A stretch of 64,000 bases of DNA from an uncultured Bacilli bacterium (GTDB taxonomy: Bacteria; Bacillota_I; Bacilli_A; RF39; UBA660): positions 7,952 to 71,951 of the forward strand of contig CANQWB010000001.1 in NCBI GenBank assembly GCA_947627435.1, written 5' to 3'. The translations under genes were made by a program, and so were the position numbers. The notes under the pieces are model-generated. The model was not told the origin of the DNA, made no database searches, and saw only the letters and a list, made by a program, of their open reading frames with translations. This document shows positions 3,922 to 60,979 of this stretch, piece by piece. Numbering within the stretch: the stretch's first letter is position 1; the number at the start of each line of letters is the position of its first letter.

Positions 3922-4050
3922 ATGAATCAACAAAAAATGGGAAAATTTATTGCAGAATTGAGGGTAGAGCACCACTATACACAAAAAGAAATAGGAGATA
4001 AATTAGGAATTTCGGATAACTCTGTATCAAAATGGGAACGCGGACTATGA
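3922..4050 (+). pseudogene. 5-prime fragment (HTH_XRE N-terminus) of an XRE::ABC-ATPase fusion gene disrupted by element insertion
   Basis: Encodes MNQQKMGKFIAELRVEHHYTQKEIGDKLGISDNSVSKWERG then runs into foreign sequence and stops; the missing HTH C-terminus (INAPDIYYLTTLAELFDVTVKELLNGE) reappears in frame at 14122 fused to an ABC ATPase. Confidence 0.65.
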
Positions 4051-4339
4051 CCTTACAAATGACACAAAATAAAAATATACAAGATTTGCTTTATTTTAAA
4101 GGGAAAATTGAAGAAACAAACATAATTGTAAAACACGAAGAAAAAGCAAAAATTGATTATAATTTAAGTATTATGGTATCAATAAACATATAAAATAAGA
4201 AAATGTCCTCTAATTGATACAAATACTTAATAAAACTAAAATAAAGTAAAAACTTATAATAATTCGGTTATGAAATTAACAAAGGTATGTGAGAAATCAT
4301 ATCTTTTTTATTTTGTGTAAAGAAAGTGAGGAATGATAT

Positions 4340-5620
4340 ATGAATTATGGAATATTTAGAAGTGAGCCAATAATGACTATAAATGATTTAGCACAAATAG
4401 GATCTCATAACAAACGTGAGAAAAAAGCCTATAAAAGTAACCCTAATATTAAATTAGAATTAACGAAAGATAATATAGAATTAGTACCCTTAAAAGAAAA
4501 ATATGTTAAGGGCTTTAAAATGCTTGTAAAAGACTATGAAAAAGAACACAACGAAAGAATGAAAACTGAAAGAGATGATAGAAAACGAACTTTTAATGAA
4601 ATGTTAAATAAATCTAAAAGTGTTGTTGCAGATGAATTAATGTTTACAGCAACACATAAGTTTTTTGATAATATGAGTAAAGAAGAAATAATGAGGTGGG
4701 CTGATACTTGTATGGATTTTGTTTACAATGATTTAGGTTATAAAAAAGAACAAGTATTACACGCAACAATCCACATGGATGAACTAACACCTCACATTCA
4801 TTGTGTAGTTGTTCCACTTGTTAAAAAATTAGATAAAAGAACAAATACTGAAAGATTTACTATTTCAAAAAAACAATATATTAAAGACAATATTCACTTA
4901 TCAGAATTACAAGATGTTTATAATTTAAGATTAAAGGAAGCAGGATTTGAACTAGAACGAGGTATTAAAAATAGTGATAGAAAACACATTAAAATTAAAG
5001 AATTTAAGAAAACCACTAGATATTATGAAAATAAAGTAACCACTATCAATAAAAATCTTGATAATGCTATGAACGATTTTGAAGAAAAAATGAAAACAAC
5101 CAAAAGTACCATTATTGATAAAGAATATGTAAAGGTTAGAAAAGACACTTTTGATAGTATGAATAATGTTATACAAGAAACAAAAAAAGCAATAGAATTT
5201 CAACCTAAAATAGAGCAATTATTTAATGAAGTTAATACCTACACTACAAGTCATCAAACACTAGAAAAAGAAAATAAGAATCTTCAAAGAGAAGTAAAAG
5301 CACTTACTACTAGAAATCAAAACTTAACAAAAGAGAATAACAACCTTAAAACCTATTTAAAAGCCATTTTAGAGGCAATTAAACACTTTTTTAGAGAAAT
5401 ACTACAAATTGGTAATGAACCTACAAAAGAAGCCACTACAAGCGAAATAAAGGACTATTATAATAATGAGGATTTTGACTCCAATGATGTTTATGATATT
5501 TCCAAAGGAACAACCAAAGAAGATGAATTATTTGATTATGCAGAAATTCCTAGTTATTTAAAAACCAGCAAAAAATCTTATAAAGAAAAAGACAAAGATG
5601 ACTACGAAATGAGCCTATAA
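4340..5620 (+). CDS. MobV-family relaxase (plasmid recombination enzyme Mob/Pre)
   Basis: 426 aa; signature HATIHMDELTPHIHCVVVPL (HxDE...PHxH motif III of MobV/Pre relaxases); coiled-coil C-terminus. Confidence 0.85.
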   Translation: MNYGIFRSEPIMTINDLAQIGSHNKREKKAYKSNPNIKLELTKDNIELVPLKEKYVKGFKMLVKDYEKEHNERMKTERDDRKRTFNEMLNKSKSVVADELMFTATHKFFDNMSKEEIMRWADTCMDFVYNDLGYKKEQVLHATIHMDELTPHIHCVVVPLVKKLDKRTNTERFTISKKQYIKDNIHLSELQDVYNLRLKEAGFELERGIKNSDRKHIKIKEFKKTTRYYENKVTTINKNLDNAMNDFEEKMKTTKSTIIDKEYVKVRKDTFDSMNNVIQETKKAIEFQPKIEQLFNEVNTYTTSHQTLEKENKNLQREVKALTTRNQNLTKENNNLKTYLKAILEAIKHFFREILQIGNEPTKEATTSEIKDYYNNEDFDSNDVYDISKGTTKEDELFDYAEIPSYLKTSKKSYKEKDKDDYEMSL

Positions 5621-5662
5621 GAAAAGTGAGATATGTTATTGATTTAGCATATTCTCACTTTT

Positions 5663-6091
5663 TTATTTTCTTAAAAACTCATCAATAGAAAGATTATGAT
5701 TTTTACAGATTGTATATAAAGTTAATGTTGTTATCAAACTCATACCTATTTCATAATGACTATAAGTAGAACGAGATATAGAACATTCATCAGCAATTTC
5801 TTGTTGAGTTAAGCCTAATTTAGTTCTCAATGATTTTAGTTTCTTTCCAATTTTGACTTGGTTAATCACTATGTTATTTGTATGTTCTTGATTTTCTCTA
5901 GTTAGTCCTAAAACAAAATCTATTGAATAATTAAATTGATTACAGAACTTTACTAATTTCTTTAATGGTATAGAATCATAAGCATTTTCCCAACCACGAA
6001 CTGTTGAATTACTTACACCAAATATATTACCCAATTCAGTTTGTGTCATCTCTAATTCTTCTCTACAATACTTTAAATTATTTCCTATCAT
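5663..6091 (-). CDS. XRE-family transcriptional regulator with two tandem HTH_3 domains
   Basis: Two Cro/C1-type HTH units (QTELGNIFGVSNSTVRGWEN.. and QQEIADECSISRSTYSHYE..). Confidence 0.8.
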   Translation of the reverse strand: MIGNNLKYCREELEMTQTELGNIFGVSNSTVRGWENAYDSIPLKKLVKFCNQFNYSIDFVLGLTRENQEHTNNIVINQVKIGKKLKSLRTKLGLTQQEIADECSISRSTYSHYEIGMSLITTLTLYTICKNHNLSIDEFLRK

Positions 6092-6192
6092 ATATGTTTC
6101 ACCATAATAATTTTCCCATCAAATTTTAATTTGATACGAAAATAGCGGGTAATGTATCAAAAATGTGATATAATCTTTTATAGAAAGGGGAA

Positions 6193-6495
6193 ATGAATAT
6201 GTATTTAAGTTTCAAAGATATTTGTTTATGTGTTTTAAAGGCTCTTATATTAACCTTAATCTTTGTAGCATTAATAGGCTTAATAATGTTTGATTACAAA
6301 ATTGGAATTAATTATTGTGATTTAATGAATATACCGAGAGATTTAGCACTTTCTGTTATGAGTTTAGGTATGGCAATAAATATCACTATTATTATGTTTG
6401 TAATAGAAATAATTGTATTGTATTTTATTATTAAAAAACTTAAACGAATTCAGTTATTTAACAATATTTGTGAATTTTTAAGTATTGATTATTGA
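6193..6495 (+). CDS. small integral membrane protein (3 predicted TM)
   Basis: 100 aa, three hydrophobic helices. Confidence 0.4.
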   Translation: MNMYLSFKDICLCVLKALILTLIFVALIGLIMFDYKIGINYCDLMNIPRDLALSVMSLGMAINITIIMFVIEIIVLYFIIKKLKRIQLFNNICEFLSIDY

Positions 6496-6593
6496 TAAAA
6501 GATTATTAAATCTAGTTAAAATCATTAAGAAAAAGTGATATAATTATATTACAAAGTGATGCAGAAATAGTAATTTGTTGAATAGGAGGAATT

Positions 6594-7814
6594 ATGAAAA
6601 AACAAATTAAAATAATTTTAGTAGTTATAATAAGTCTTATAGTTTTATATGGTGTATTATTCTTTGTTGATATGAACAGAGTTAAGCACTTAAAAAGACC
6701 TATATTTTGTGTAGAAAATGGATATATGGGTAGTATGACAAGATATGATGGTTTAGGATATAAAATAGGTCTTGATATTAACGCAACAACAGGAGAAATA
6801 ACTTATGGACAAATGACTATATTAGGACAAACTATTGTCAAATCATATAGTGAAAATGAAGATAATAAAGCAACAGATGATTATGATAAGCAATTAGTAC
6901 AATGTTTAGAAAGCCAATTAGGAGGCTATCTTGTAACCGAAAAAGATGATTTAATAGAAATACCTTTGAGTGAAATAAAAAATAGTGATAAAGAAAAAAT
7001 CTCCTATTATAAAGGAGTATATGCTAGTAATCATCCAAATAATATTTATGTAATGGTTTTTCCAAAAAATGGAACTTATGAATCTAGTGTAATGAAAGAT
7101 TTTGATAAATATTTTTATGAAAAATTTTCTGTATATCAAAAGTATGAAAGTCCTACTACTCCAACAATTTACATTCATACTAATGACAACGATGTAGATT
7201 TCAAAGAAATCACTAACAAGTGTGTAACTAGGAAAAATACTGAAAATGGTAAATCTATTCCTACAGAAACATTAAATAAAATTAATGACACTACTAAAAT
7301 AATTATAAAATCTAGTCAAGAAGAGTTAGGAACAATAACCGATAAAGAAAAACTGACAGAAATATTAAGTGCTATTTCAAGCAGTAAAAGATATGGCGAA
7401 GTATGTACTTCTGATGGACATGGATTTGAATTTAATATGTATGACAAAAATAATAAACTTATTGATACCATTTATATTTGGGGTGATGGTGCAAGATTAA
7501 TGCCTAAAAGTCTTAATGGTTGTCCTTATGTAACCACAGATAATACTGATTTAAGAAAAATAATTGAAGATACAACTGATTATATATTTTCTGGAATTTT
7601 AGATTTTAGAGATGATATTAATCAAACAGAGCAAACATTAATATACAAAGATGGTAAAAATAGTTATTATTTAAATAGTAAAGATCCTAATGAAATATTG
7701 ATTAAATTTATGTTAAATAATAAAGTAATGACTCTTAAATATGCTTTAGAAAATAAATATATTTCAGCAGAAAAAGTTGCTAGTGAGTATCCAGATATAT
7801 TGATAAGAAAATAA
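6594..7814 (+). CDS. membrane-anchored protein, N-terminal domain paralogous to 8414-8950 (GLGYK motif)
   Basis: N-terminal TM, then KRPIFCVENGYMGSMTRYDGLGYKIGL resembling EPKYCIKIVSNDGSKVTYWGLGYKVIRYV of the downstream paralog. Confidence 0.5.
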   Translation: MKKQIKIILVVIISLIVLYGVLFFVDMNRVKHLKRPIFCVENGYMGSMTRYDGLGYKIGLDINATTGEITYGQMTILGQTIVKSYSENEDNKATDDYDKQLVQCLESQLGGYLVTEKDDLIEIPLSEIKNSDKEKISYYKGVYASNHPNNIYVMVFPKNGTYESSVMKDFDKYFYEKFSVYQKYESPTTPTIYIHTNDNDVDFKEITNKCVTRKNTENGKSIPTETLNKINDTTKIIIKSSQEELGTITDKEKLTEILSAISSSKRYGEVCTSDGHGFEFNMYDKNNKLIDTIYIWGDGARLMPKSLNGCPYVTTDNTDLRKIIEDTTDYIFSGILDFRDDINQTEQTLIYKDGKNSYYLNSKDPNEILIKFMLNNKVMTLKYALENKYISAEKVASEYPDILIRK

Positions 7815-7824
7815 TAAGTTAAAT

Positions 7825-7837
7825 AAATTACAATTTG
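7825..7837. repeat. palindromic motif AAATT-AC-AATTT copy 1, upstream of 7856 gene
   Basis: Perfect inverted repeat immediately followed by GTAAGGGAG RBS. Confidence 0.4.
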
Positions 7838-7855
7838 TAAGGGAGATGTTGTTTT

Positions 7856-8383
7856 ATGGATAATAAGAAAAAAATAGTAATAGGAGTTGTGATTTTAATT
7901 TTGTTAGTAACTATTGGAGGAGTAATTTACTATACTATTTATAAAGATGTTACTGATAGAGAAAACTTTGATGGAAAAAAAGAAAATTTGGGTAATACTC
8001 CAGTAGATACAACAAGTAACAATTTTGATTTTTATATTGAAAAACCAGAAATTCATAATGATATTAGATTTAATGATTATTTCACTTTTAGTGATAGAAA
8101 GATTTATTTAGCAGGTAATATTGAACAATTTTATGTTATAGATGGAAAAACCATGATTTTAAAGGAATATATTTCAAATGCTAATAGAACAATGAATGAT
8201 AGCATTAAATCGATAACTGATAAATTAGAATTAAAAGATACCTTAAAAGATGGAGGAACAAAGATTTACAAATCAAAAGACAAAGATATTACAATGATAG
8301 TATGTAACACTATTAAAAACGATAAAAATATATTTATTGGGGATTATTCTATGGAATATACAGAAGGAGATTGTAAAAACTAA
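7856..8383 (+). CDS. membrane-anchored small protein (175 aa), cassette member
   Basis: N-terminal TM (KKKIVIGVVILILLV..), start context identical to the next gene. Confidence 0.5.
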   Translation: MDNKKKIVIGVVILILLVTIGGVIYYTIYKDVTDRENFDGKKENLGNTPVDTTSNNFDFYIEKPEIHNDIRFNDYFTFSDRKIYLAGNIEQFYVIDGKTMILKEYISNANRTMNDSIKSITDKLELKDTLKDGGTKIYKSKDKDITMIVCNTIKNDKNIFIGDYSMEYTEGDCKN

Positions 8384-8397
8384 CAAATTACAATTTG
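8384..8397. repeat. palindromic motif CAAATT-AC-AATTTG copy 2, upstream of 8414 gene
   Basis: Perfect 6+2+6 inverted repeat followed by GAAAGGGAA RBS. Confidence 0.4.
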
Positions 8398-8413
8398 AAA
8401 GGGAAATGCGTTT

Positions 8414-8950
8414 ATGAAAAAGAAAATATATATTGGTGCAGGAATAATTTTAGTTATACTTATAGTTGCAGGAATCATAACAAACTATGCAGATAGTGGT
8501 AGAGTAACAACAGGACATGAGCCAAAGTATTGTATTAAAATAGTTAGTAATGATGGTAGTAAAGTGACTTATTGGGGATTAGGTTATAAAGTTATTAGAT
8601 ATGTTGGAGTATCTCCAAATGAGCCTTATGAAAATAATATTGGTGTAAAAATGGGAAGTTGGTTTATGAATTATGATTTACCAAATGAAAAAGTCATCAC
8701 AATAGAATATGAAGGTAAAACAATAGAAATAAATAATTATGATGACATCAATAAAATTTACAATATATTAGTTAATTCAAAATACAACTCTGAAATATGT
8801 GATGGGATAAATACTCACAAAATAATAATAGACAATGAAGTATATTATTTAAAAGAGAGTTGTCAAGAAATTCAAAAAGGAGATAAACAATCAAAAATAT
8901 CAAAAGAAGATTTAGACACAATATTAAAAATAATAGATAGTAATAAGTAA
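8414..8950 (+). CDS. membrane-anchored small protein (178 aa), cassette member
   Basis: N-terminal TM (KKKIYIGAGIILVILIV..), GLGYK motif shared with 6594 gene. Confidence 0.5.
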   Translation: MKKKIYIGAGIILVILIVAGIITNYADSGRVTTGHEPKYCIKIVSNDGSKVTYWGLGYKVIRYVGVSPNEPYENNIGVKMGSWFMNYDLPNEKVITIEYEGKTIEINNYDDINKIYNILVNSKYNSEICDGINTHKIIIDNEVYYLKESCQEIQKGDKQSKISKEDLDTILKIIDSNK

Positions 8951-8952
8951 TA

Positions 8953-8966
8953 CAAATTACAATTTA
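8953..8966. repeat. palindromic motif CAAATT-AC-AATTTA copy 3 (imperfect), after last cassette gene
   Basis: Third copy of the motif, not followed by an ORF. Confidence 0.35.
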
Positions 8967-8971
8967 TAGAA

Positions 8972-9385
8972 CAGATTAAAGCGAGAACCGAGCCAAAAGA
9001 AATTACATAACTAATGGCTCGGTTAAAACCTAGTTCTTGGCGACTAGGTAACACACTACGATATTGGCAAAGCCAATAACGATGTGTGCAAAGGGTGATC
9101 CCTTTTGAAACCCCTTTTAAGCAACATATTACAAAGTTTCACAATGTAATATTGTTGCCTTTTTATTTCACTTACGTTTCATAAAAAGAAAAAAAGGACT
9201 ACAACTTTCATCAGCATAGCTGACAAAACGTGATAGCCTTTTTTTAATGAAAATAACCTTAATGCTAAAGTCTTACGACTAAAGCAAAAAGGTTATTTTT
9301 TTCTTTTGTTATCACAAAAGTATTGATGAATAAAATTACTTTTCCCACTTTCATTGTCTTACGACAACAAAACGTGTTCGTAATT
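8972..9385. other. GC-enriched, highly structured non-coding region (candidate oriT/sso or ncRNA) within the element
   Basis: No ORF; multiple stem-loops (AACCGAGCC..GGCTCGGTT 9 bp; CCTAGT..ACTAGG; CAACATATTACA..TGTAATATTGTTG; AATAACCTT..AAGGTTATT+T-run); GTCTTACGAC direct repeat x2; local GC well above flanks. Confidence 0.4.
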
Positions 9386-9832
9386 TTATTTCTTCTTATT
9401 ATATGTTTTTTCTAATAATCTTGCAGTATCTCTCTTTGCTACATAAATTGCTAAATAAGTAAACACTTCATATACTACCATTACAATAAAGAATCCGATT
9501 ATAATATATTGATTATGTGTGATGCTTTGTTTAACCCATTCAGCACCCTGAATAATTAAATATACTACACCAAAGAATACAGTTGATAATGTAGTAGAGT
9601 CATCAAAAGATCGTTGTATCACTCTTGATTCTTCTTTATCAACATTTAATCCTCTTACACTCCATCTTGCAATTACCATTAACACCAACACCATTAAAAA
9701 TGGAGTAATAACCCAATATAGATTATAACCATAATCATTTTTGAGTATTAAAACGAATACTAAACTTACTAACATAAAAATATTTAATAATACGATTCCA
9801 ATATTTCTTATTAGATTTTTATTTCTTTGCAT
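9386..9832 (-). CDS. integral membrane protein (4 TM), co-transcribed with XRE repressor
   Basis: 148 aa, four hydrophobic segments; overlaps stop of upstream XRE gene by 14 nt. Confidence 0.5.
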   Translation of the reverse strand: MQRNKNLIRNIGIVLLNIFMLVSLVFVLILKNDYGYNLYWVITPFLMVLVLMVIARWSVRGLNVDKEESRVIQRSFDDSTTLSTVFFGVVYLIIQGAEWVKQSITHNQYIIIGFFIVMVVYEVFTYLAIYVAKRDTARLLEKTYNKKK

Positions 9833-10337
9833 TTTTGTTTCTCTCCTTTACTTTTAAACTTAGAATTAAATTAACAATTTCATTAGACGTATTGATTTGA
9901 TATTTTGTATCTTCTATTGTATGTAGTAGTAATTCTTTTTCACTTTCTAATATGTTTTGCTTTTTTAAATTTTCTTCACACGACTTAACTAATTGTTCTG
10001 AATTAGTAATACTACCTAACACATTGATTTCAGCCTCATTTAATTCATCTAAATTCATTTTTTCATAGTAATCCTTAATAAATGGATTTAATGAACTAAC
10101 TTCCATACCCAAACCTATCATGTACATCATTTCATTATAATTTACGTTTATGTGTCTACTAATCTTTCTTAAAGTTTTAGGGTTAGGTATTTCTCTTTCT
10201 CCTGATTCAATTTTAGATAATTCAGCATTACTAATATTTGCAATTTTAGCAAGTTGTCTTTGAGAAAGTTTTGCTTTTTCTCGTGCTTCAGCGATTATCT
10301 CGCCAATCTTTTTTTCTTGCATTGTAATACACCTCAC
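9819..10337 (-). CDS. XRE/cI-like HTH repressor
   Basis: HTH_3 (LSQRQLAKIANISNAELSKIESGEREIPNPKTLRKISRHINV); divergent from sigma-A promoter TTGACA-17-TATATT at 10413-10441. Confidence 0.75.
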   Translation of the reverse strand: MRCITMQEKKIGEIIAEAREKAKLSQRQLAKIANISNAELSKIESGEREIPNPKTLRKISRHINVNYNEMMYMIGLGMEVSSLNPFIKDYYEKMNLDELNEAEINVLGSITNSEQLVKSCEENLKKQNILESEKELLLHTIEDTKYQINTSNEIVNLILSLKVKERNKNAKK

Positions 10338-10474
10338 ACATACATAATAGCATATATGTTACCTAAAATCAACAAAATACATAAAAATGTTTCAAAAAGT
10401 GTTGACAACTTCGTAATTATTATGTATATTGTATGTGTTACCGAAAATTAACATTGAAAGGAGGGATTAAATGA

Positions 10475-10735
10475 ATGAGGATTAAACACCTAGAAGTACC
10501 ACAAGAGATTTGGGAAGATAAAAGAATCCCAAAAGAAACGAAGTATATTTACTCTTATATCTATTCTAAAGGATTTGATAGAATTATCACAGACATAAAT
10601 ATAGGAGAGATACAACAAACCATTAAAATTAAAAATAAGGGTTTGAAAAGAAGTCTTGAAATATTAAAACAATTAAAGTATCTAAAATATTTTCAAGAAT
10701 ATGCAACAGGAATGTACACAATAACACTTAACTAA
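10475..10735 (+). CDS. HTH_36-like small DNA-binding protein
   Basis: Pattern KETKYIYSYIYSKGFDRIITDINIGEIQQTIKIKNKGLKRSLEILKQLKYL resembles the winged-helix HTH_36 fold of phage/plasmid replication organisers. Confidence 0.45.
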   Translation: MRIKHLEVPQEIWEDKRIPKETKYIYSYIYSKGFDRIITDINIGEIQQTIKIKNKGLKRSLEILKQLKYLKYFQEYATGMYTITLN

Positions 10736-11005
10736 AGTGCCGAAAAGCGTTAGTTATAAGAGGTACAGTAAGATGAAAGGCTTATGTTAGTACCTATTCT
10801 AGTAATAGAATGAATCTAGTTTGAAATAAGACATACTCAAAGAACTATTAAAATAAAAAGAAATGTATGTGTTATTTCAAATAATATAATCCGATGAAAC
10901 AGGATTTAAAATAAAGTTTCAGGGATAACTTTGCTTATTTTTAGTAGTTAGACTTGTAGATAATACAGGTTTTTTTGTTGTTTAAATCAAATAAAGGAAA
11001 GGAGA

Positions 11006-11257
11006 ATGTCTATGAGAGAATTAACAAGAGTTGATATTGTAAAAAACAGAGTTGATACGATCCCACAATACTATATTTTAGATTACTTAAAGAAAAACTT
11101 AAATATAGATGAATTTAAAATATATCTAGTTAATCGTAATAGTATCAAAGTTATTGATTCAACAGGAGATTATTTATATTTTAATTGTGATGACAATACA
11201 AAAGAAGTAACTTATCATGAAAAACCAAAAGAAAAAGAATATGAAATAGGATTATAA
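11006..11257 (+). CDS. hypothetical protein
   Basis: 83-aa ORF with RBS AAAGGAAAGGAG. Confidence 0.4.
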   Translation: MSMRELTRVDIVKNRVDTIPQYYILDYLKKNLNIDEFKIYLVNRNSIKVIDSTGDYLYFNCDDNTKEVTYHEKPKEKEYEIGL

Positions 11258-11261
11258 GACT

Positions 11262-11519
11262 ATGGGTTGCATTATACTAGATGATTCCATAGTTAAAAGT
11301 AATAAGATAAATTCCACAGAAAAACTTGTATATGGTGTTATTCTATCACTTGCGAATAATAAAGGTTATTGTTATGCAAGTAATGATTATATAAGTGATA
11401 AAGTAAACCTATCTAAAAGAACGATTACTAATTCTATCAGCGAACTAAAAAGAGCAAATTATATAAGAGTTGAATACGTAAACTTTGAAAGACACATCTA
11501 TCCCATACAAACCGAGTAG
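11262..11519 (+). CDS. HTH_36 domain protein
   Basis: STEKLVYGVILSLANNKGYCYASNDYISDKVNLSKRTITNSISELKRANYI matches the HTH_36 pattern. Confidence 0.55.
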   Translation: MGCIILDDSIVKSNKINSTEKLVYGVILSLANNKGYCYASNDYISDKVNLSKRTITNSISELKRANYIRVEYVNFERHIYPIQTE

Positions 11520-11690
11520 CAATATTCTTCTATACCCTATGGAAGAATACTGCTATACCCCATAGCAAAATACTTCTACCAAAGAATATAAGAATAATAA
11601 ATAAGTATAATAAATAAATATTTTAATTATATTTAAATTTATTTTAAGTAATTTAAATAACTAAAGAAATTAAATGAAAGGATTTGATAT

Positions 11691-12131
11691 ATGGATTATG
11701 AAAATGTAAATTATAATGAGGTTATCATATCAGGAATAATCAATGTTGTTACAGATACTAATGATAAGTATATTAAGTTTGGATTAACAACTAACAAATA
11801 TACTTTAAATGATGATAAAAAGGTTTATGTAAGTTTAAATATATCAAGAGAATTATATAACACTTATCAAGATTATTTTGTTAAAGGAAATAAAGTCTTT
11901 ATCAAAGGTTATCTAAATTCTTATGTTGATAAAACTAAACACATACAGAGTTTTATTACAACAACTGATATTTCAAATAACCCAAATGACATTAAAACAG
12001 GAAGAAAAGCACCACATATTAGGTATGATCCTGATGGTGTTATGGTATGGAATGGCAAACGTTGTGAGGCGATTCCACCAACTGAAAAAGAACTACAAGA
12101 AATGCAAGAATTATTAGGCGATTATAAATAG
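11691..12131 (+). CDS. single-stranded DNA-binding protein (divergent SSB, OB fold)
   Basis: NEVIISGIINVV.. and YVSLNISRELYNTYQDYFVKGNKVFIKGYLNSY parallel the SSB OB-fold core; acidic C-terminal tail region. Confidence 0.5.
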   Translation: MDYENVNYNEVIISGIINVVTDTNDKYIKFGLTTNKYTLNDDKKVYVSLNISRELYNTYQDYFVKGNKVFIKGYLNSYVDKTKHIQSFITTTDISNNPNDIKTGRKAPHIRYDPDGVMVWNGKRCEAIPPTEKELQEMQELLGDYK

Positions 12132-12204
12132 TATTGAACGGAGGAAATGAGATTATATATGAAAAAGAATTATTATTAAAACTAAAAAGAAAGGGGGAAG
12201 TTTA

Positions 12205-12357
12205 TTGAACGATACTAAAAAATTAACACAAATTGAAATTGAAAATATATTAGATGAAACAATTAACTTATCAATAATAAGTAAATTACTGAATTTAAAA
12301 CTTATTACAGAAAAACAATATTACGTACTGAAAGAAAAAATAAAGAATTTTTATTAA
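12205..12357 (+). CDS. small ORF (TTG start, 50 codons) with SHOCT-like C-terminus; possible recombination directionality factor
   Basis: RBS AAGGGGGAAG 7 nt upstream of TTG; C-terminal LITEKQYYVLKEKIKNF; directly upstream of recombinase. Confidence 0.25.
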   Translation: MNDTKKLTQIEIENILDETINLSIISKLLNLKLITEKQYYVLKEKIKNFY

Positions 12358-12413
12358 AAGGCTACAGGAATGTACAAAAATAAGATATAATAAATACAGA
12401 GGACATTTATTTA

Positions 12414-14171
12414 ATGTCTAACATTAAAAGAAAGAGAGGTAAAATGGCGATTGTTGAGGTTATTAAAAGTAATAATCTCATAACCGAAGAAATCAATACT
12501 GAAAATAAACTAAAGAAAGTATGTGCATATTGTAGAGTTTCAACAGATAGTGAGGAACAATTAACAAGTTATTCATCACAAATAAAACATTATTCAGCAC
12601 AGATAAAAGCGAATCCAAATTGGGAGTTTGTAGGAATATATGCTGATGAGGGTATAAGTGGAACACAAGTTAAAAAACGTACTGAATTTCAAAGAATGAT
12701 AAACGATGCTTTAAATGGTAAGATAGATATTATTATAGCAAAATCAATATCAAGATTTGCAAGAAATACTATTGATACCTTAAAGTATGTAAGAGATTTA
12801 AGAGAACGTAAAGTTGATGTGTATTTTGAAAAGGAAAATATTCACACATTAGAACTTGAAAGTGAAATGTTTTTAACACTCTTTAGTGCATTTGCTCAAG
12901 CTGAAAGTGAATCAACTTCTCAAAACGTTAAAATGGGAATAAAAGCAATGATGAAACGAGGAGAATTTGTTGGTAAAGCAGAATGCTATGGCTATAAATG
13001 GAATAAGGAAACGAAGACACTAGAAGTTTACGAAGAACAAGCAAGTGTTGTTAGAATGATATTTAATTGGTATGCTGATGGAGTTGGAACAAGAACGATT
13101 GCTAATAGACTTAATGAAAAAGGTTATAAAACTTATACAGGTAAAAATTTTACTCAACAAGGTGTAAGAGAAATGATTTCTAATGAAAAATATGTTGGAG
13201 ATTTATTGTGTCAAAAGTATTATACGATAAGTCCTCTAACACATAAGAAAACAAGAAATTATGGCGAACGTGAAAAATATTATGTCAAAGATCATCATAC
13301 ACCTATCATTACAAGAAAAGTTTGGGACAAAGTACAAGAAATACTAACAAAAAGAAGTAAGAAGATAATCCCTGATGGCAAAAGTCATGCAAGTAAATTC
13401 ACAAGTCAATATGCTTTTAGTTCTAAAATAGAATGTGGACTATGTGGAACAAATTATGCTCGTAGAGTTAGTGGCAAGTATAAAGATGGAAGTCAAAAAG
13501 TCTATTGGGCTTGTTATCATAAAGTAGTTAAGAAAAGTAATTGTGAACACTCTATAACCTTTAGAGAAGATTTTTTAAAAGATTTATTCATACAAATTTA
13601 TAATTCTATTGTGGAGAAAAAGCATAAGACAAAAGATAAGTTATTAAAGGCAATACGTGAAACTCTAGAAAGTGATGATAGCAAGACTAAAATTGATAAA
13701 CTTTATAAAGAACTAGAATCACAACAAAAAAGATTATCTAATTTAATTGATATGAAACTAGATGACTATGAGAATAAAAATGCTTATACTGAAAAGGAAA
13801 AAGAAATAAATGGTAAAATCAAAAGCCTAAATGATGAAATCTATCAATTAGAGTTAGAAAACAATAATAACAAAGAAATTTCTAAAAGACTAAAAGAGAT
13901 AGAAGAAGTTGTGTTTGAAAGTGAGAAATCTTTAAAAGAATTTGATGAGGCAACATTTGAAAATTTAGTTGAGAAAATCATAATAGGAGAAAAAGATGAG
14001 AATGGAAATGAGAATCCTAATGTGATTAGATTTATTTTAAAAATTGGTGGAGATTATAAAGCCATAATCTCCCCAAATAATAATAGTATTGATGATGTGT
14101 CATTTGAACAAGGAAACAGGTATCAATGCACCCGATATTTATTACTTAACTACATTAGCAGAATTATTTGA
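12414..14171 (+). CDS. large serine recombinase (resolvase/invertase N-terminal domain + recombinase domain + zinc ribbon + coiled coil)
   Basis: 585 aa; catalytic region YCRVSTDSEEQ...IIAKSISRFARN; Cys-rich CGLCGTNYARR...CYHK zinc ribbon; coiled-coil; reads across the right junction of the element. Confidence 0.9.
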   Translation: MSNIKRKRGKMAIVEVIKSNNLITEEINTENKLKKVCAYCRVSTDSEEQLTSYSSQIKHYSAQIKANPNWEFVGIYADEGISGTQVKKRTEFQRMINDALNGKIDIIIAKSISRFARNTIDTLKYVRDLRERKVDVYFEKENIHTLELESEMFLTLFSAFAQAESESTSQNVKMGIKAMMKRGEFVGKAECYGYKWNKETKTLEVYEEQASVVRMIFNWYADGVGTRTIANRLNEKGYKTYTGKNFTQQGVREMISNEKYVGDLLCQKYYTISPLTHKKTRNYGEREKYYVKDHHTPIITRKVWDKVQEILTKRSKKIIPDGKSHASKFTSQYAFSSKIECGLCGTNYARRVSGKYKDGSQKVYWACYHKVVKKSNCEHSITFREDFLKDLFIQIYNSIVEKKHKTKDKLLKAIRETLESDDSKTKIDKLYKELESQQKRLSNLIDMKLDDYENKNAYTEKEKEINGKIKSLNDEIYQLELENNNNKEISKRLKEIEEVVFESEKSLKEFDEATFENLVEKIIIGEKDENGNENPNVIRFILKIGGDYKAIISPNNNSIDDVSFEQGNRYQCTRYLLLNYISRII

Positions 14172-14961
14172 TGTAACCGTAAAAGAACTATTAAATGGTG
14201 AAAGAGATTTTAAGAAAAAAGAAATAGATAAAAACCATCATGCCAAAGTATTAGAAGTATCGCATGTATCAAAAAAGTTTGGTAATAGAATGGTACTACA
14301 AGATATTAATTTGGACATTTATGAGGGAGATATAGTTGGTTTAATTGGACCAAATGGTGCCGGAAAAACATCTTTGATTAAAACCATATTGAATTTATAT
14401 CATGCAGATATGGGTACCATTAAGATATGTGGTTATAACACCAAAAAGAATCTAGAAAAAGCATTATCAAATACAGGATGTATTATTGAAAATCCAGATT
14501 TATATGCCAATTTAAGTGCTAGAAAAAATATAGAGATTACTTCTTTAATCAATGGAATTCAAGATAAGGATTATATCAATCAAATGATTGTTTCTATGAA
14601 ATTAGATACGAGAATAGATGAAAAAGTAAAAACATATTCATTAGGAATGAAACAAAGACTTGGATTAGTAAATGCTTTGATTAAAAAACCCAAACTTTTA
14701 ATTTTAGATGAACCAACGAATGGGTTAGATCCAGTTGGAATCAAAGAACTAAGAAATTTATTAAAAGAAATTAGTAAAAAAGAACACATGAGTATTTTAA
14801 TCAGTAGTCATATTCTATCGGAAGTTGAAAACATATGTGATCAAATTGTAATTATAGATGAAGGAAAAATAATAAGTCAATTTGGCATTGAAGAAATTAA
14901 ATATAAAAATAGAAATTTGGAAGAAGAATTTTTCTTGAAAATGAATCAAAGGAATATTTAG
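14089..14961 (+). CDS. ABC transporter ATP-binding protein, 3-prime portion of the XRE::ABC fusion gene split by the element (authentic reading frame resumes at about 14122)
   Basis: Walker A GPNGAGKT, signature LSGGQ-like YSLGMKQRL, Walker B LLILDEP; N-terminal residues INAPDIYYLTTLAELFDVTVKELLNGE are the C-terminal half of an HTH_3 domain. Confidence 0.75.
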   Translation: MMMCHLNKETGINAPDIYYLTTLAELFDVTVKELLNGERDFKKKEIDKNHHAKVLEVSHVSKKFGNRMVLQDINLDIYEGDIVGLIGPNGAGKTSLIKTILNLYHADMGTIKICGYNTKKNLEKALSNTGCIIENPDLYANLSARKNIEITSLINGIQDKDYINQMIVSMKLDTRIDEKVKTYSLGMKQRLGLVNALIKKPKLLILDEPTNGLDPVGIKELRNLLKEISKKEHMSILISSHILSEVENICDQIVIIDEGKIISQFGIEEIKYKNRNLEEEFFLKMNQRNI

Positions 14962-14969: not shown

Positions 14970-16511
14970 ATGAAAATTATAAAATTAGTCAAAAGTGAGT
15001 TTATCAAGAATTGTACAATAAAAAAATGGCTTATTATTGTATTTGTTTTGTTAATTTCATCAATATTTTTAACCGAATTCGTCGATTTATCGATGCAACC
15101 AAGCAATATACTTTCTATGTTACATTCAGAAAATGTTATCTATGAGGATAATTACAATAGTTTATCCAAAAAAGAAGAATTGACATTAAAAGAAAAATAT
15201 CAATTATATTATGCAAGCATTAGTTTAAAATTAAATCAATATTTTATTGATAAAAATATAAAGACAATAGATTGGAAATTTGAACTCGGTCAAAATTTAA
15301 AATATATATTAAAAAATAATTATATAATTGAGCTTTTACAAGAAAATCGAAACAATCCTACAATAGTAATGCTATGTGAAAATGAGTTATCTAATGGAGA
15401 ATTTGAATCAAATATGAATTATTATTGTAATAATTATTCACAAGAGGAATTAAATAATTTATTTGTTATGAATCAAAAAACGGTTGAGATATATAAAAAT
15501 TTATTAGCACGTGATCAATTTTATTTATATATAACATATTTATTTAATACAGGAAAAATAAATGAAGATAATAAACCTTTCGCAAAAGAAATAATAGAAC
15601 AAAAAGTACAGTCGGTAGAAGATTTCCGTGCTTTATACTATTTGCAAAGTGCGCAATTGCATTTTGAAGAATTTCCAATACAGTATTCTAAGTCATACTA
15701 CCGCTATATCAATATCTTCAATCAAAATGTTACTATGCAAAGAGCAATACTACTTTATAGCATCAAACACAATATCAAACATGATATGTTACATATATCA
15801 ACAGCAAACTCTATTTATGCTACAAATTATATTACAAGTAAAATGATTGTGAACAAAATATTTTATTTATCGATTGTTGTCTTGCTTATTGTAAGTATAT
15901 CTTGTAGTGGAATTGTAAGTAAAGAACATAATACAGGGACTATTAAAAATATTATTACGGCGCCTATTAAAAGATGGAAAGTACTATTATCTAAATTCAT
16001 TTATTTGATTTTATACACATATATTGTCTGGTTTATTGGACTCTTAATGCTTAGCATCTATGCAGGAATAAAATATGGATTTCAAGATTTATTTACACCA
16101 AAATTGATTTACTTTAATAATAAGGTAATAGAAGTCAATTATTATTTATATTTGCTAAAAGATTTATTTATCATTAATATTCCCATTTTAGCTTTTCTAT
16201 GCATTTTATTATTTCTTTCTACAATTACTTTAAATACAACGATTACAACTAGTATAACTACTGTACTAACTATTTTAGCCCCAATCACTTATTATTTATG
16301 TGAATACAATAAATTGTTTTCTATTTTTCTATATACACCATTACCATATTTCAATTGTGGGTTTATTTTAGAAAAAAGTAATGTATACATGGAAATACTA
16401 AAACAAACAACTATTTCACTCCATTTGGGAATTTTTATATCAATTGTAACATGTATTGTTTTATATGTCATCATAAACACTATTTATCAAAAACGTGATA
16501 TCAAAAGTTAA
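14970..16511 (+). CDS. ABC-2 type transporter permease with large N-terminal extracytoplasmic domain
   Basis: 513 aa; N-terminal TM, about 280-aa soluble region, then about 5 TM helices; downstream of the ABC ATPase. Confidence 0.55.
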   Translation: MKIIKLVKSEFIKNCTIKKWLIIVFVLLISSIFLTEFVDLSMQPSNILSMLHSENVIYEDNYNSLSKKEELTLKEKYQLYYASISLKLNQYFIDKNIKTIDWKFELGQNLKYILKNNYIIELLQENRNNPTIVMLCENELSNGEFESNMNYYCNNYSQEELNNLFVMNQKTVEIYKNLLARDQFYLYITYLFNTGKINEDNKPFAKEIIEQKVQSVEDFRALYYLQSAQLHFEEFPIQYSKSYYRYINIFNQNVTMQRAILLYSIKHNIKHDMLHISTANSIYATNYITSKMIVNKIFYLSIVVLLIVSISCSGIVSKEHNTGTIKNIITAPIKRWKVLLSKFIYLILYTYIVWFIGLLMLSIYAGIKYGFQDLFTPKLIYFNNKVIEVNYYLYLLKDLFIINIPILAFLCILLFLSTITLNTTITTSITTVLTILAPITYYLCEYNKLFSIFLYTPLPYFNCGFILEKSNVYMEILKQTTISLHLGIFISIVTCIVLYVIINTIYQKRDIKS

Positions 16512-19400: not shown

Positions 19401-19497
19401 TTGTCTTGAAAAGAAAAATAAAATATAGTACACTAGTGGTGTATATAAGAATAAAAGAATTAGAAAAGTATCAGAATAGGAGTAAGGAGAGATGTAT

Positions 19498-20949
19498 ATG
19501 AAGAAAAAAGGATTTACATTGATAGAATTATTAGCGGTAATCGTAATACTTGCAATTATCGCACTAATCGCAACGCCAATGATTATGGGTGTAATAGAAG
19601 ATGCCAGAAAAGGAGCAGCAATTCAATCAGTAAATGGATTACTAGAAGCAGGAGAACAATATCAAATAGAAGGAATGCTAGAGGGGAATTCTTCAAATGT
19701 AATTGATTTAACAAGTGATACATTAAGTATAAAAGGAAGTAAACCAGAAAGTGGCTTATTAGTAATAGATAATAGTGGAGATATGAGTATTATAGCAAAA
19801 TACGGAAAATACTGTATCGAAAAGAAATATGAAGATGAAGAGCCAACAATAGTAGAAAAAAATCCATGTGTGATAGAAGAAGATGAAGTTGATGTCAAAA
19901 TCTATGGAGTAAAAAGAAAAATTAATAGCTCATCAACAGAGTGGGAAAGAATCGATAATAGTGTTGGATTAGAAGCAAAAGCACAAATAGGAACACAAGA
20001 AGTAACAAATGATTTTGACAATATTTATCCATGGAGTGAAATATATACTTACAGTTGGAATAAAGCAACAGGAAAAGAGACAAGATGGAATGAAGAAGGA
20101 TTTTCATATACTGATGATTATGTATTTACAAAAATACCAGAATTTTATTATAGAAGATATCAAGAGAATGGATATGAATATGTTTTAATATCTAAAAATA
20201 AAATAGAAGGATATACAAAAAGCAATGAATTTTCAATAGGAAGATATACGATGTCAGGAACTGAAACAGGGGTTTATAGTAAAAGTGGAGCACAACCGTT
20301 AAGAAATAAAACAATAGGCGAATTTAGAGACTATGCAAGAGCCTTAGGAAATGAATTCAGTCAATTAGATTATCATTACTTTATTATTCAATTATTATAT
20401 TTAGTAGAATATGCAAATTATGATTCTCAAGAAAAATTAGGAAGAGGAAATGTGGCCAATAGTATAGTAATATCTAGTGGTGGTTGCGATACATTAGGCA
20501 TGAAATCAGGGACACTTAATAATGATGGACAACATTCCATGATATATAGAGGAATGGAAGATATTTATGGAAATATATTTCAATTTGTAGATGGAATTAA
20601 TATCAAAGATTATCAAGCATATGTATGTTATAATCCAAATCAATATGAATCAGATACATTTGAAGGCTATTATCAACAATTAGGTTATGTAAATACAATT
20701 GCGGGAGGATATATCAAAAAACTAGGATATGATGTCAATCATTCATTAATCAGTTTTCCATTAGAGGTAGGTGGAAAAGAAAATACATATATTCCAGATA
20801 GTTATTATCGATCTTCTGGAAATAGAATAGTAATGGTTGGTGGGCTTGGAAATCGTGATTCTCAGGCAGGCTTGTGGTGTTGGGACTGTAATAATCCTTC
20901 GTCCATTGTTGGTGACTATATCAGTGCTCGCCTTATTAAAACTAGTTAG
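19498..20949 (+). CDS. modular type IV prepilin-like protein (class III signal peptide + about 450-aa C-terminal module), paralog A
   Basis: N-terminus MKKKGFTLIELLAVIVILAIIALIATPMIMGV (G/FTLIE prepilin peptidase site, Glu+5); C-terminal half highly similar to 43476-44963. Confidence 0.7.
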   Translation: MKKKGFTLIELLAVIVILAIIALIATPMIMGVIEDARKGAAIQSVNGLLEAGEQYQIEGMLEGNSSNVIDLTSDTLSIKGSKPESGLLVIDNSGDMSIIAKYGKYCIEKKYEDEEPTIVEKNPCVIEEDEVDVKIYGVKRKINSSSTEWERIDNSVGLEAKAQIGTQEVTNDFDNIYPWSEIYTYSWNKATGKETRWNEEGFSYTDDYVFTKIPEFYYRRYQENGYEYVLISKNKIEGYTKSNEFSIGRYTMSGTETGVYSKSGAQPLRNKTIGEFRDYARALGNEFSQLDYHYFIIQLLYLVEYANYDSQEKLGRGNVANSIVISSGGCDTLGMKSGTLNNDGQHSMIYRGMEDIYGNIFQFVDGINIKDYQAYVCYNPNQYESDTFEGYYQQLGYVNTIAGGYIKKLGYDVNHSLISFPLEVGGKENTYIPDSYYRSSGNRIVMVGGLGNRDSQAGLWCWDCNNPSSIVGDYISARLIKTS

Positions 20950-43450: not shown

Positions 43451-43475
43451 TTTGTGATTGGAAGGAGTGAAAAGA

Positions 43476-44963
43476 ATGAAGAAGAAAGGATTTACATTGA
43501 TAGAATTATTGGCTGTAATCGTAATATTAGCAATTATTGCACTAATCGCAACGCCAATGATTATGGGAGTAATAGAAAATGCAAGAAAGAAAGCAGCAAT
43601 TCAATCAGTGAATGGCTTATTAGAAGCAGGAGAACAATATCAAGTAGAATCTATGATGGATGGAGCAAGAGAAACTGAAATCGATTTAACTGGTGATACT
43701 TTAGATATAAAAGGAAGTAAACCAGATAGTGGAGAACTCATCTATGATAGTTTAGGAAATATGAGTATTATAGCAAAATATGGAAAATACTGTATCGAAA
43801 AGAAATTTTTAGATGAAGAACCAACCATAGTCACAAGAAAAGAATGTGAGATGAAAGCATCAGAAAAAGCTAATCAAACAACAAAAATATATGGAGTAAA
43901 AAGAAATATAGAAAGTGAATCAACAGAATGGGAAAGAATAGATGATGGAATAGATTTAACAGCAAATGCCCAAATAGGACCAGATGCAACAAATGTAAAA
44001 AATGATTTTGATAGTGTATATCCATGGAGTGATATAGAGACATATACATATGATGTAGAGAAAAAAGAAGTAACCAGTTGGTATAATGAAGAAAAAGATA
44101 AATTCAAATTTGATGGAAGTAAAGGAGAAGTACTAACATATATACCAACATTCTATTATAAGAGATATCAAGAAGATGGATATGAATATATTTTAATAAG
44201 TAATAAAAATTTAGAGGGATATACAAGAAGTGATGCATTTTCAATAGGAAGATATACAATGTCAGGTGATAGCAATGCTGTACATAGTAAAAGTGGGAAA
44301 CAACCATTAACGAATAAAAAAATAAATGAATTTAGAGACTATGCAAGAGCATTAGGGGATGAATTTAGTCAATTAGATTATCATTACTTTATTATTCAAT
44401 TATTATATTTAGTGGAATATGCAGATTATGATTCACAAGTCAAGTTAGGACAAGGATATACAGCTACAAGCAATACTGCAGTTATTAAAAGTGGAGGTTG
44501 TGATGAATTAGGAATGAAATCAGGAACACTCAATAATGATGAACAACATTCTATGATATACAGAGGAATGGAAGATATCTATGGAAATGTATGGCAATTT
44601 GTAGATGGAATCAATATTAAAGATCATCAGGCATATGTATGTTATAATCCTAATCAATATGAATCAGACAAGTATGATGGATGTTATCAAAAACTAGGTT
44701 ATGTGAATGCAAATGTTAATGGATATATAAAGAAATTAGGTTATGATTCTAAAAATCCATTAGTGAGTTTTCCAACAGAAATTGGTGGAAGTGCTAGTAC
44801 ACATATTTCAGATAATTATTGGCATAATCCTGACAATAGAATAGCTATTGTCGGCGGTGCATGGTTCGTTACCAATCTTGGTGGGTTGTGGTATTGGAAC
44901 TTGTATCATGATTCGGGTGATACGTACGGCTACTTCGGAGCTCGACTTCTTAAAACTAATTAA
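43476..44963 (+). CDS. modular type IV prepilin-like protein, paralog B
   Basis: MKKKGFTLIELLAVIVILAIIALIATPMIMGV identical to paralog A; RBS GGAAGGAG; mosaic divergence in the first half, conserved C-terminal half. Confidence 0.7.
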   Translation: MKKKGFTLIELLAVIVILAIIALIATPMIMGVIENARKKAAIQSVNGLLEAGEQYQVESMMDGARETEIDLTGDTLDIKGSKPDSGELIYDSLGNMSIIAKYGKYCIEKKFLDEEPTIVTRKECEMKASEKANQTTKIYGVKRNIESESTEWERIDDGIDLTANAQIGPDATNVKNDFDSVYPWSDIETYTYDVEKKEVTSWYNEEKDKFKFDGSKGEVLTYIPTFYYKRYQEDGYEYILISNKNLEGYTRSDAFSIGRYTMSGDSNAVHSKSGKQPLTNKKINEFRDYARALGDEFSQLDYHYFIIQLLYLVEYADYDSQVKLGQGYTATSNTAVIKSGGCDELGMKSGTLNNDEQHSMIYRGMEDIYGNVWQFVDGINIKDHQAYVCYNPNQYESDKYDGCYQKLGYVNANVNGYIKKLGYDSKNPLVSFPTEIGGSASTHISDNYWHNPDNRIAIVGGAWFVTNLGGLWYWNLYHDSGDTYGYFGARLLKTN

Positions 44964-60088: not shown

Positions 60089-60165
60089 GGGCGATTAGCT
60101 CAGTTGGTTAGAGCACCTGCCCTACAAGCAGGGGGTCGTAGGTTCGAGTCCTACATCGCCCACCA
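60089..60165 (+). tRNA. tRNA-Val (anticodon TAC)
   Basis: Hand-folded: acceptor GGGCGAT/ATCGCCC, anticodon stem CCTGC/GCAGG, loop CCTACAA, encoded CCA. Confidence 0.85.
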
Positions 60166-60176
60166 TTTATTTTTTT

Positions 60177-60252
60177 GCCGAAATGGCGCAATTGGTAGCG
60201 CAACTGACTTGTAATCAGTAGGTTACGGGTTCGATTCCTGTTTTCGGCACCA
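60177..60252 (+). tRNA. tRNA-Thr (anticodon TGT)
   Basis: Acceptor GCCGAAA/TTTCGGC, anticodon loop CTTGTAA, encoded CCA. Confidence 0.85.
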
Positions 60253-60257
60253 GTTAT

Positions 60258-60341
60258 GGAGGGGTAGCGAAGTGGTCAAACGCGGCAGACTGTAAATCTG
60301 TTCCTTCGGGTTCGATGGTTCAAATCCATCTCCCTCCACCA
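60258..60341 (+). tRNA. tRNA-Tyr (anticodon GTA), type II with long variable arm
   Basis: Acceptor GGAGGGG/TCCCTCC, anticodon loop CTGTAAA, variable arm TCCTTCGGG.., CCA. Confidence 0.85.
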
Positions 60342-60356
60342 CTTATTTGGTTACAT

Positions 60357-60432
60357 TGCCTCGTAGCCAAGCGGTAAGGCACCACACTTTGACTGTGGCA
60401 TTGCGCTAGTTCGAATCTAGCCGAGGCAGCCA
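60357..60432 (+). tRNA. tRNA-Gln (anticodon TTG)
   Basis: U1:A72, acceptor TGCCTCG/CGAGGCA, anticodon stem CCACA/TGTGG loop CTTTGAC, CCA. Confidence 0.85.
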
Positions 60433-60447
60433 TTTTTTAATTCATAT

Positions 60448-60523
60448 GTCCCGTTAGCTCAGCAGGTAGAGCATTTGACTTTTAATCAAAGGGTCACAGA
60501 TTCGAATTCTGTACGGGACACCA
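60448..60523 (+). tRNA. tRNA-Lys (anticodon TTT)
   Basis: Acceptor GTCCCGT/ACGGGAC, anticodon loop CTTTTAA, CCA. Confidence 0.9.
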
Positions 60524-60527
60524 CTGT

Positions 60528-60902: not shown

Positions 60903-60979
<77 letters not shown>

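Follow-up and report, generated by a model that had tools for sequence, protein, structure and literature searches.

A probable integrative mobilizable element whose attB is a conserved helix-turn-helix domain motif found in different XRE genes

The best-studied integrative mobilizable element (IME) family is Tn4451/Tn4453 of Clostridium perfringens and C. difficile, which combines a large serine recombinase (LSR), TnpX, with a MobV-type relaxase, TnpZ (PMC5704250). Here we analyse a 64,000-nucleotide stretch of DNA from an uncultured Bacilli bacterium (contig CANQWB010000001.1; the window), in which a segment of 10,077 bp (4044..14120, + strand; 25.9% GC compared to 28.1% for the window) interrupts a gene for an XRE-type helix-turn-helix (HTH) protein fused to an ABC ATPase. 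We assign a probability of roughly 0.87 to the reading that this segment is an IME that entered the XRE gene by its own LSR. It resembles Tn4451 in having an LSR with a 2-bp crossover, a MobV relaxase and no mating pore, so that mobilization would occur in trans, whereas the low target specificity of Tn4451 contrasts with the defined motif of ~30 bp that is recognizable here (PMC5704250). In addition, the window LSR is remote from TnpX (PDB 2mhc), the remaining gene content is unrelated, and the plasmid database yielded no match. Membership in the Tn4451/Tn4453 family was therefore rejected, given a TnpX match of E 4e-4 and no DNA match in the plasmid collection. Tn4451 recombines at a GA crossover, carries its recombinase gene at the opposite end, and creates the tnpX promoter by circularization.

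Genes for XRE-type regulators have been noted as IME targets before. A gene annotated 'HTH-XRE regulator' is listed as a serine-integrase IME site in Streptococcus suis (PMC7168690), and an aadE IME of C. difficile, equipped with MobV and a serine recombinase, sits in several different HTH-regulator genes (PMC12271512). In the latter study, 'no discernible core motif' was reported for the integration sites of npmA2 structures classified as integrative and conjugative elements (ICEs) or IMEs (PMC12271512). These systems share with the window element the serine recombinase, the IME organization and the target gene class, as well as MobV in the C. difficile case; they are likened here by description and not by recombinase homology, and the two papers name only the gene class, whereas the target in the window is resolved to the codons for KWERG-x3-PD and a GG core. 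As such, the element is ordinary, since IMEs with a serine recombinase and MobV that disrupt dispensable genes are well documented. What appears to be new at the sequence level is a domain-motif attB present across XRE genes, an attP located inside the LSR gene, a conserved open reading frame (ORF) at the left end and a structured non-coding block.

A preliminary description of this locus had placed an insertion at 4044-14120 in an XRE-HTH::ABC-ATPase gene and proposed that the HTH_3 domain is cut in two; both statements are correct, and the boundaries hold to the nucleotide. They are set by rejoining of the host gene, by an empty site in a sister species (L001-L003) and by same-ended elements elsewhere. 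The 5' fragment of the host gene (3922..4043, + strand) belongs to a left ORF (3880/3922..4050) that reads MNQQ...SKWERG and then, when the element is integrated, leucine and a stop codon (4045-4050). It matches only positions 1-32 of the 55 positions of the HTH_3 profile and ends with the GG of the attL crossover (4042-4043). The 3' part (14121..14961, + strand) starts with T14121, the third base of the Gly41 codon GGT, and is contained in a right ORF (14089..14961) whose frame reads (G)INAPDIYYLTTLAELFDVTV, corresponding to HTH_3 positions 33-55, followed by a linker and a complete ABC_tran domain. When 3922-4043 and 14121-14961 are joined in silico, a check that the preliminary description had itself suggested, the resulting 963 nt are in frame and encode 320 aa, and a profile search of this protein recovers HTH_3 1-55/55 plus ABC_tran. 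The closest homologue (P0001, 320 aa) is 85% identical over 100% coverage. Alignment with ten homologues of 320 aa places no gap at the junction and identifies S36, K37, W38, E39, R40, G41, N43, A44, P45, D46 and I47 as invariant (S-K-W-E-R-G-x-N-A-P-D-I).

The uninterrupted gene is found in the sister species on the contigs carrying P0001 (L001-L003), where the empty site reads ...GGGAACGTGG TATCAATG... and can be aligned to the rejoined window DNA at ~90% nucleotide identity across the join with zero indels. Synteny extends 3' of the gene, with the ABC-2 permease, Ddl, DUF308 and UvrD/AddB genes arranged as in the window. Within the species itself, the predicted empty-site junction joins GGGAACGCGG to TATCAATGC (in the longer form, ...AAATGGGAACGCGG to TATCAATGCACCCGAT...). 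The insertion is present with 100% identity in 8 contigs (L004-L006) and is therefore not an assembly artefact.

The only sequence common to both junctions is the dinucleotide GG at 4042-4043 and 14119-14120, exactly as previously noticed, and this holds at all five insertion sites considered below. The left end of the element (4044..4066), which forms the P' half of attP, consists of a 12-bp spacer, ACTATGACCTTA, and an 11-bp arm, CAAATGACACA (4056-4066). The right end (14096..14120), or P half, contains an 11-bp arm, TGTGTCATTTG (14096-14106), which also codes for V-S-F, a 12-bp spacer, AACAAGGAAACA, and the GG at 14119-14120. The reconstructed attP reads TGTGTCATTTG-AACAAGGAAACA-GG-ACTATGACCTTA-CAAATGACACA; its arms are perfect 11-bp inverted repeats, i.e. 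exact reverse complements, each located 12 bp from the central GG. This is the geometry expected for a serine integrase. Since GG is non-palindromic, the orientation of insertion is fixed. The reconstructed attB reads ...AAATGGGAACGC GG TATCAATGCACCCGAT..., and the predicted circle junction links GGAAACAGG to ACTATGACC (longer form: ...GAACAAGGAAACAGG to ACTATGACCTTACAAATG...). Comparison of the attB and attP half-sites by eye revealed no convincing common arm motif, and attB may thus be conserved for its coding role as much as for contacts with the recombinase.

A point missed by the preliminary description concerns the target, which is not this gene alone but a conserved domain motif present in many genes. 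Elements of 6.2-10.4 kb with the same ends reside in four other genes (L007, L093, L096 and L098). L007, from another Bacilli metagenome-assembled genome, is 96.6-99% identical at the nucleotide level over the shared parts, except for a replaced cargo segment of 1.2 kb, and interrupts a different gene, whose 202-aa XRE product has a membrane segment as well as a zinc ribbon; here, ...SKWERG precedes and ICLPDAG... follows the junction. L093 (6,158 bp), L096 (10,367 bp) and L098 (8,046 bp), for which both ends were retrieved, carry LSRs of the same 90% cluster. At every site, the left end reads ACTATG(A/C)CCTTACAAATGACACAAAA and the right end TGTGTCATTTGAACAAGGAAACAGG. Rejoining the flanks at the four other sites restores an intact XRE protein with HTH_3 1-55/55 (3-55/55 in one case). 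The five target proteins have only the HTH domain of ~70 residues in common, at 36-53% identity, and their attB sites align as AAATGGGAAMGNGG, followed beyond the junction by N10 CCMGAT, which corresponds to the codons K-W-E-R-G, x3, P-D.

Further junctions fall at the same position. A squirrel-gut JGI metagenome contig (L092), retrieved by the right-end pattern, is 95.5% identical at the nucleotide level to window positions 10402-14120 and reads (G)TGYPETEKL at its right junction; as it is known from this junction only, it counts as one further partial site. The LSRs of L090 (77% identical), L087 (73%) and L091 (63%) likewise adjoin second halves of HTH_3 domains. Taken together, all five full and four partial junctions at the DNA level lie at the same HTH_3 codon in the same orientation. 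In L091 (6802-11731; junction ERG followed by RGTPDISLLLPL), the LSR and the same 50-aa ORF that precedes it in the window are located next to a type IV secretion system (T4SS) coupling protein and a sortase, so an element of conjugative type also relies on a related recombination module. Insertion sites differ in other sub-clades: L010 lies between genes and has a CC core, and L008 is inserted in the 3' end of another gene. The exact attB motif occurs nowhere else in the window and, among the 99 fetched loci, only in three orthologous empty sites. We conclude that attB is not gene-specific and is the DNA coding for those residues that are best conserved in XRE-type HTH domains, which rank among the commonest DNA-binding domains of bacteria. 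Because attB is a domain motif, a wide range of XRE genes is open to elements of this family. L007 and L092 are nearly identical to the window element and yet sit at different sites, which implies recent movement, and mobility of the element is supported.

The recombinase itself is encoded by 12414..14171 (+ strand), an ORF that crosses the right junction, as had been recognized before. As integrated, the protein comprises 585 aa, of which residues 1-569 are encoded by the element (to position 14120) and the final 16 residues, YQCTRYLLLNYISRII, are translated from the host gene in a different frame. All three defining domains were detected with Pfam (Resolvase PF00239, 114 bits; Recombinase PF07508, 97 bits; Zn_ribbon_recom PF13408, 34 bits). 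The catalytic serine is found in an RVST context, and the catalytic domain matches PDB 3g13 with an E-value of 2e-57, which, together with the SPbeta YokA/SprA recombinase, represents the structural relatives of this LSR. The target motif, the multiple insertion sites, the ends, the core and the intact catalytic motifs are direct observations.

An alternative view of these junctions would be that the LSR is a transposase-like enzyme of low specificity, similar to TnpX of Tn4451 or TndX of Tn5397, and that the bias towards XRE genes reflects a short, degenerate DNA preference. By the rule of Durrant et al. (2022), in which one 90% LSR cluster found in >3 target-gene clusters is multi-targeting, the window LSR would count as such (PMC10083194). 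The same study marks the multi-targeting, TndX-like clade by DUF4368 (PMC10083194), a domain absent from the Pfam matches of the window LSR at E <= 0.01, which places it outside this clade. The match to TnpX (PDB 2mhc) is also weak (E 4e-4) and restricted to the N-terminal domain. One left junction, in a GNAT acetyltransferase gene (P0333), does lie outside an XRE gene, as low specificity would predict. However, the five full and four partial junctions at one HTH_3 codon and in one orientation, as well as the rarity of the exact motif in the window and the fetched loci, speak for sequence-specific recognition. In the text of Durrant et al. and its available supplements, HTH, XRE and helix-turn-helix are unmentioned (PMC10083194).

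A census of LSR C-termini bears on the same question. Since the LSR ORF runs through attR, each insertion yields a new recombinase C-terminus, and the tail records the flanking host sequence. Tails were taken after the conserved VSFxxxxR from 84 LSR sequences in nine 90% clusters, which gave 66 distinct tails. In 40 of these 66, residues 4-5 are [STPA]-R, corresponding to nCC-MGA in the LSR frame and to Pro-Asp/Glu in the host frame, and another 15 end after the fourth residue [STPA] (CCTGA). A G-x3-P-[DE] target is thus fitted by 55/66 tails, and 10 of the 66 are off this pattern, a minority that could be cited for degenerate targeting. Considering all of these data, we regard a low-specificity enzyme as very unlikely. 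The 'VSF' codons coincide with the attP arm GTGTCATTT, so that some of what looks like protein conservation is conservation of a DNA site. The LSR clade that recognizes the ~30-bp target spans 62-100% identity. More distant LSRs (L013-L080, ~40% identical), from Finegoldia, Anaerococcus, Peptoniphilus, Paenibacillus, Clostridia and other hosts, are conserved up to a C-terminal ...LCSHSSDDTCG and then diverge. Reading of the ORF through the att site may be general across the larger LSR family. Plasmid and phage collections contained no near-identical DNA, and the top plasmid-borne LSR is 40% identical.

In addition to the LSR, the element encodes a MobV-family relaxase of 426 aa (4340..5620, + strand) with SHNKRE near the N-terminus (read straight from the sequence), the motif IHMDELTPHIHCVVVP (HxDExxPHxH) and a coiled-coil C-terminus. 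The Pfam Mob_Pre score is 102.5 bits, and the NCBIfam MobV equivalog is matched with 110.5 bits at a cut-off of 100. Furthermore, IHMDELTPHIH of the window protein aligns to VHLDESTPHMH of MobM (PDB 4lvi), including the metal motif HxDExxPHxH, and the assignment as MobV in the preliminary description is well founded. No element ORF matched T4SS, VirB4, coupling-protein or other mating-pore families in Pfam, NCBIfam or PHROGs, again in agreement with the earlier view of the element. With an intact LSR, an intact MobV and no mating-pore genes, the segment is best read as an IME.

The genes between the cargo and the LSR could suggest a different origin. An XRE (HTH_3) repressor-like gene of 172 aa (9819..10337, - strand; profile match) is divergent from a promoter-like site, TTGACA-17-TATATT (10402..10430, + strand), which faces a conserved rightward module of small ORFs (10475..12357, + strand) extending to the LSR. 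The cI/Cro-like switch proposed for this region is plausible by gene arrangement, which is its sole basis. The operon starts with an 86-aa ORF (10475..10735, + strand), followed by ORFs of 83 aa (11006..11257, + strand) and 85 aa (11262..11519, + strand). Of the two HTH_36 proteins reported earlier, the 85-aa protein is confirmed as an HTH_36 or replication-initiator-like winged HTH protein (phrog_270, 1.2e-14), whereas the 86-aa product has no Pfam match and only a weak, DnaD-like N-terminal PHROG match (E 8e-4). In total, the element genes include three XRE-type regulators and one HTH_36 protein. A 146-aa protein (11691..12131, + strand) had been named a single-stranded DNA-binding protein (SSB), a call that was not confirmed: it scores 21.4 bits compared to a Pfam cut-off of 26, phmmer returned no meaningful PDB match, and a single-sequence AlphaFold2 model with a predicted local distance difference test score of 47 is unusable. 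Last in the module is the 50-aa ORF (12205..12357, + strand), which always precedes the LSR, the ICE-like L091 included, and is strongly conserved (LSIISKL..KLITEKQYYVLKEKI) in the IME relatives and in L091.

A repressor with a divergent operon, winged HTH proteins resembling the N-termini of phage or plasmid replication initiators, the sub-threshold SSB match and the abundance of LSRs in temperate phages would all suit a phage-related island, i.e. a defective prophage or satellite spread by packaging, with the relaxase being incidental. Against this, the element lacks capsid, terminase, portal, tail and lysis genes as well as any structural PHROG match, and it has no match in 50,697 phage records. 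Viral contigs of IMG/VR were likewise negative for the right-end, left-end and attP junction patterns. Moreover, the elements measure only 6-10 kb, and the relaxase is intact here and conserved across most relatives. We consider a phage-related island highly improbable.

Several points weigh against the IME reading. An empty site in the same species was not found: the insertion is present in all 8/8 contigs bearing this host gene fragment, and the top full-length match in the protein collection is only 85% identical. The circular (attP) junction was not found either. The adjacent region, the part of the window scanned for this purpose, contains no helper conjugative element. An origin of transfer (oriT) was not located: the pMV158 oriT core gave no match at up to 3 mismatches, and inverted-repeat scans yielded candidates only. 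The four cargo proteins and several small proteins match no family, and the HTH_36/DnaD-like proteins together with the repressor module would equally fit a replicative or phage-related island. In principle, the element might be a fixed remnant that is no longer mobile in this lineage, for which the missing empty site and circle, and the decay of the relaxase gene in some relatives (Mob_Pre fragments of 205 and 158 aa in L093/L094), could be taken as signs. We think this unlikely, given that the LSR, MobV and the regulators of the window element are full-length, both att halves are intact, and the L007 and L092 copies at other sites point to recent movement.

Assuming an active IME, a plausible life cycle can be outlined. 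The LSR would join attP of the circular element to attB in the HTH_3-coding part of the XRE::ABC-ATPase gene, with strand exchange at the non-palindromic GG. Excision to a circle would be carried out by the same LSR, possibly with the 50-aa protein, a candidate recombination directionality factor. MobV would then nick a candidate oriT, and a single strand may leave by the mating pore that a conjugative element in the same cell provides; the second strand would then be synthesized and the element integrated again, at any XRE gene bearing the motif. Excision is probably controlled by the divergent XRE repressor and rightward operon through the divergent promoter, and the middle of the element is exchangeable cargo.

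The position of attP within the 3' end of the LSR gene has a further consequence. A conserved ORF of 48 codons (MTLQMTQNKNIQDLLYFKGK...MVSINI*; 4047..4193, + strand) at the left end of the element continues the LSR reading frame across the reconstructed attP, and in the circle form the LSR would be extended in silico by 49 codons to 618 aa. The ATG of the left-end ORF shares bases with the premature TGA that truncates the host XRE gene (CTATGA), an overlap that recurs at every HTH_3 insertion because the motif fixes the host frame. The left-end ORF is kept in all relatives, including L010 and down to LSRs of 60% identity; substitutions in it are conservative, indels keep the frame, and the stop position is preserved. 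Its product may function as an extension of the LSR, as a small protein in its own right, or in both ways. Fusions of the left-end peptide to an LSR were found neither in a set of 5.8 billion proteins nor among 1.84 billion representatives, which contained only ORFs of 44-77 aa and one GNAT fusion. The latter is P0333 (165 aa), in which the N-terminus of the acetyltransferase runs in frame into the left-end ORF (...KMELW joined to TMTLQMTQNK...), apparently through an off-target insertion into a gene that is not of the XRE type.

These observations raise the possibility, which we hold to be doubtful at present, that the recombinase gene straddles attP in such a way that the physical state of the element is written into its proteins. 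The circle would encode an LSR of 618 aa with a conserved C-terminal extension of 49 residues and the integrated form an LSR with a host-derived junk tail, and the detached extension would be expressed as the 48-codon ORF from a captured, probably de-repressed host promoter. Integrases of the archaeal SSV1 type and mycobacteriophages with integration-dependent immunity are known to carry attP inside a phage gene, with integration altering the protein. The archaeal attP-in-gene arrangement has been described (PMC8371274). As in these cases, the att site lies within a coding sequence of the element, and the protein encoded differs between the integrated and the excised state; however, those systems employ tyrosine recombinases, whereas here it is the serine recombinase's own 3' end that spans attP, with a putative functional effect. 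In the searchable library, no description of a serine recombinase gene that spans its own attP was encountered, which is no proof of novelty.

Two non-coding regions, in addition to the att sites, are conserved among the relatives. The first, a 435-bp block (8951..9385, + strand), is present in all of them at 72-98% nucleotide identity, including relatives whose LSR identity drops to 60%. Its consensus fold on the + strand contains 74 pairs, 25 of which show compensatory double changes, and includes the hairpin CACACTACGATATTGGC/GCCAATAACGATGTGTG and two terminator-like stems followed by T-runs. No credible Rfam family was found in the element, and the whole window gave tRNAs only. We consider the block a candidate single-strand origin (sso), oriT or non-coding RNA. 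Single-strand origins are known from rolling-circle plasmids of the pMV158 type and from ICEBs1. The block resembles these by form alone, as a strand-specific, multi-hairpin, conserved non-coding region of an element that MobV could transfer as single-stranded DNA; it differs in that an oriT or an RNA would be an equally good reading. The second block (10736..11005, 270 bp), between the first two small ORFs of the rightward operon, is 70-100% identical at the nucleotide level in relatives, harbours an inverted repeat of 17 nt (10820-10836 / 10865-10881) and may represent an origin or an operator.

Candidate oriT regions are located at 9052-9088, within the structured block, and at 4194-4339. 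The latter region (4194..4339, + strand), immediately 5' of mobV and hence in the conventional position for a MobV oriT, carries the conserved block AAAGGTATGTGA.AAATCATATC...TTTTGTGTA and a promoter-like site (4214-4242). Promoter and terminator scans returned 88 hits compared to 82 expected, which is background in AT-rich DNA.

The remaining genes of the element divide into a conserved backbone and variable cargo, a pattern also seen in L087, L088, L090, L093, L096 and L098. A tandem double HTH_3 (XRE) regulator of 142 aa (5663..6091, - strand) is convergent with mobV, and a gene for a 148-aa membrane protein (9386..9832, - strand) overlaps the upstream XRE gene. The cargo (6193..8950, + strand) encodes proteins of 100, 406, 175 and 178 aa with hydrophobic N-termini and no family match; the segment 6599-7794 is swapped in L007, and other relatives carry wholly different cargo. 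Among these are a GH10 glycosidase and an Imm33 immunity-like protein in L087 (2259-7009), an ABC/FtsX transporter and a two-component system in L090 (1215-6466), an acyltransferase in L093 (6850-7836) and DUF2201 proteins in L096 (3035-7813).

For the host, insertion means that the XRE::ABC ATPase loses its HTH, and the ATPase part may still be expressed by read-through from the LSR operon. The host gene is a member of a large family whose architecture does not vary, an XRE HTH_3 domain linked to an ABC ATPase: 119/119 of the full-length matches listed (P0001-P0120) carry HTH_3 plus ABC_tran, and P0110 is the truncated product of the window. An ABC-2 permease gene comes next in the window (14970-16511), directly after the disrupted gene, and in L001-L003. 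Elsewhere in the window, a single tRNA gene (2387-2459) is located ~1.5 kb left of the insertion and an array of 12 tRNA genes (60089-62397) near the right end. Two paralogous genes of ~485-501 aa (19492-20949 and 43458-44963) are ~78% identical at the nucleotide level, and the L004 annotation assigns them an N_methyl prepilin-type signal.

Insertions of this kind have practical implications for annotation, as they repeatedly split XRE genes and create spurious, insertion-specific LSR C-termini, and the latter inflate protein clusters, with 66 tails in 84 sequences. The attP/attB pairs described here are ready for recombinase tool development. The concrete motif may also help to interpret earlier integrations into different HTH-regulator genes, with recombinase homology presumed in none of these cases. 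The arrangement of attP inside a gene is of wider interest only if functional; if so, it would provide a built-in switch between integration-competent and excision-competent states, and targeting of a domain motif would guarantee the reading-frame geometry at each insertion. Above all, a domain-motif target of ~30 bp explains how one recombinase can find sites in many hosts and genes and still be sequence-specific.

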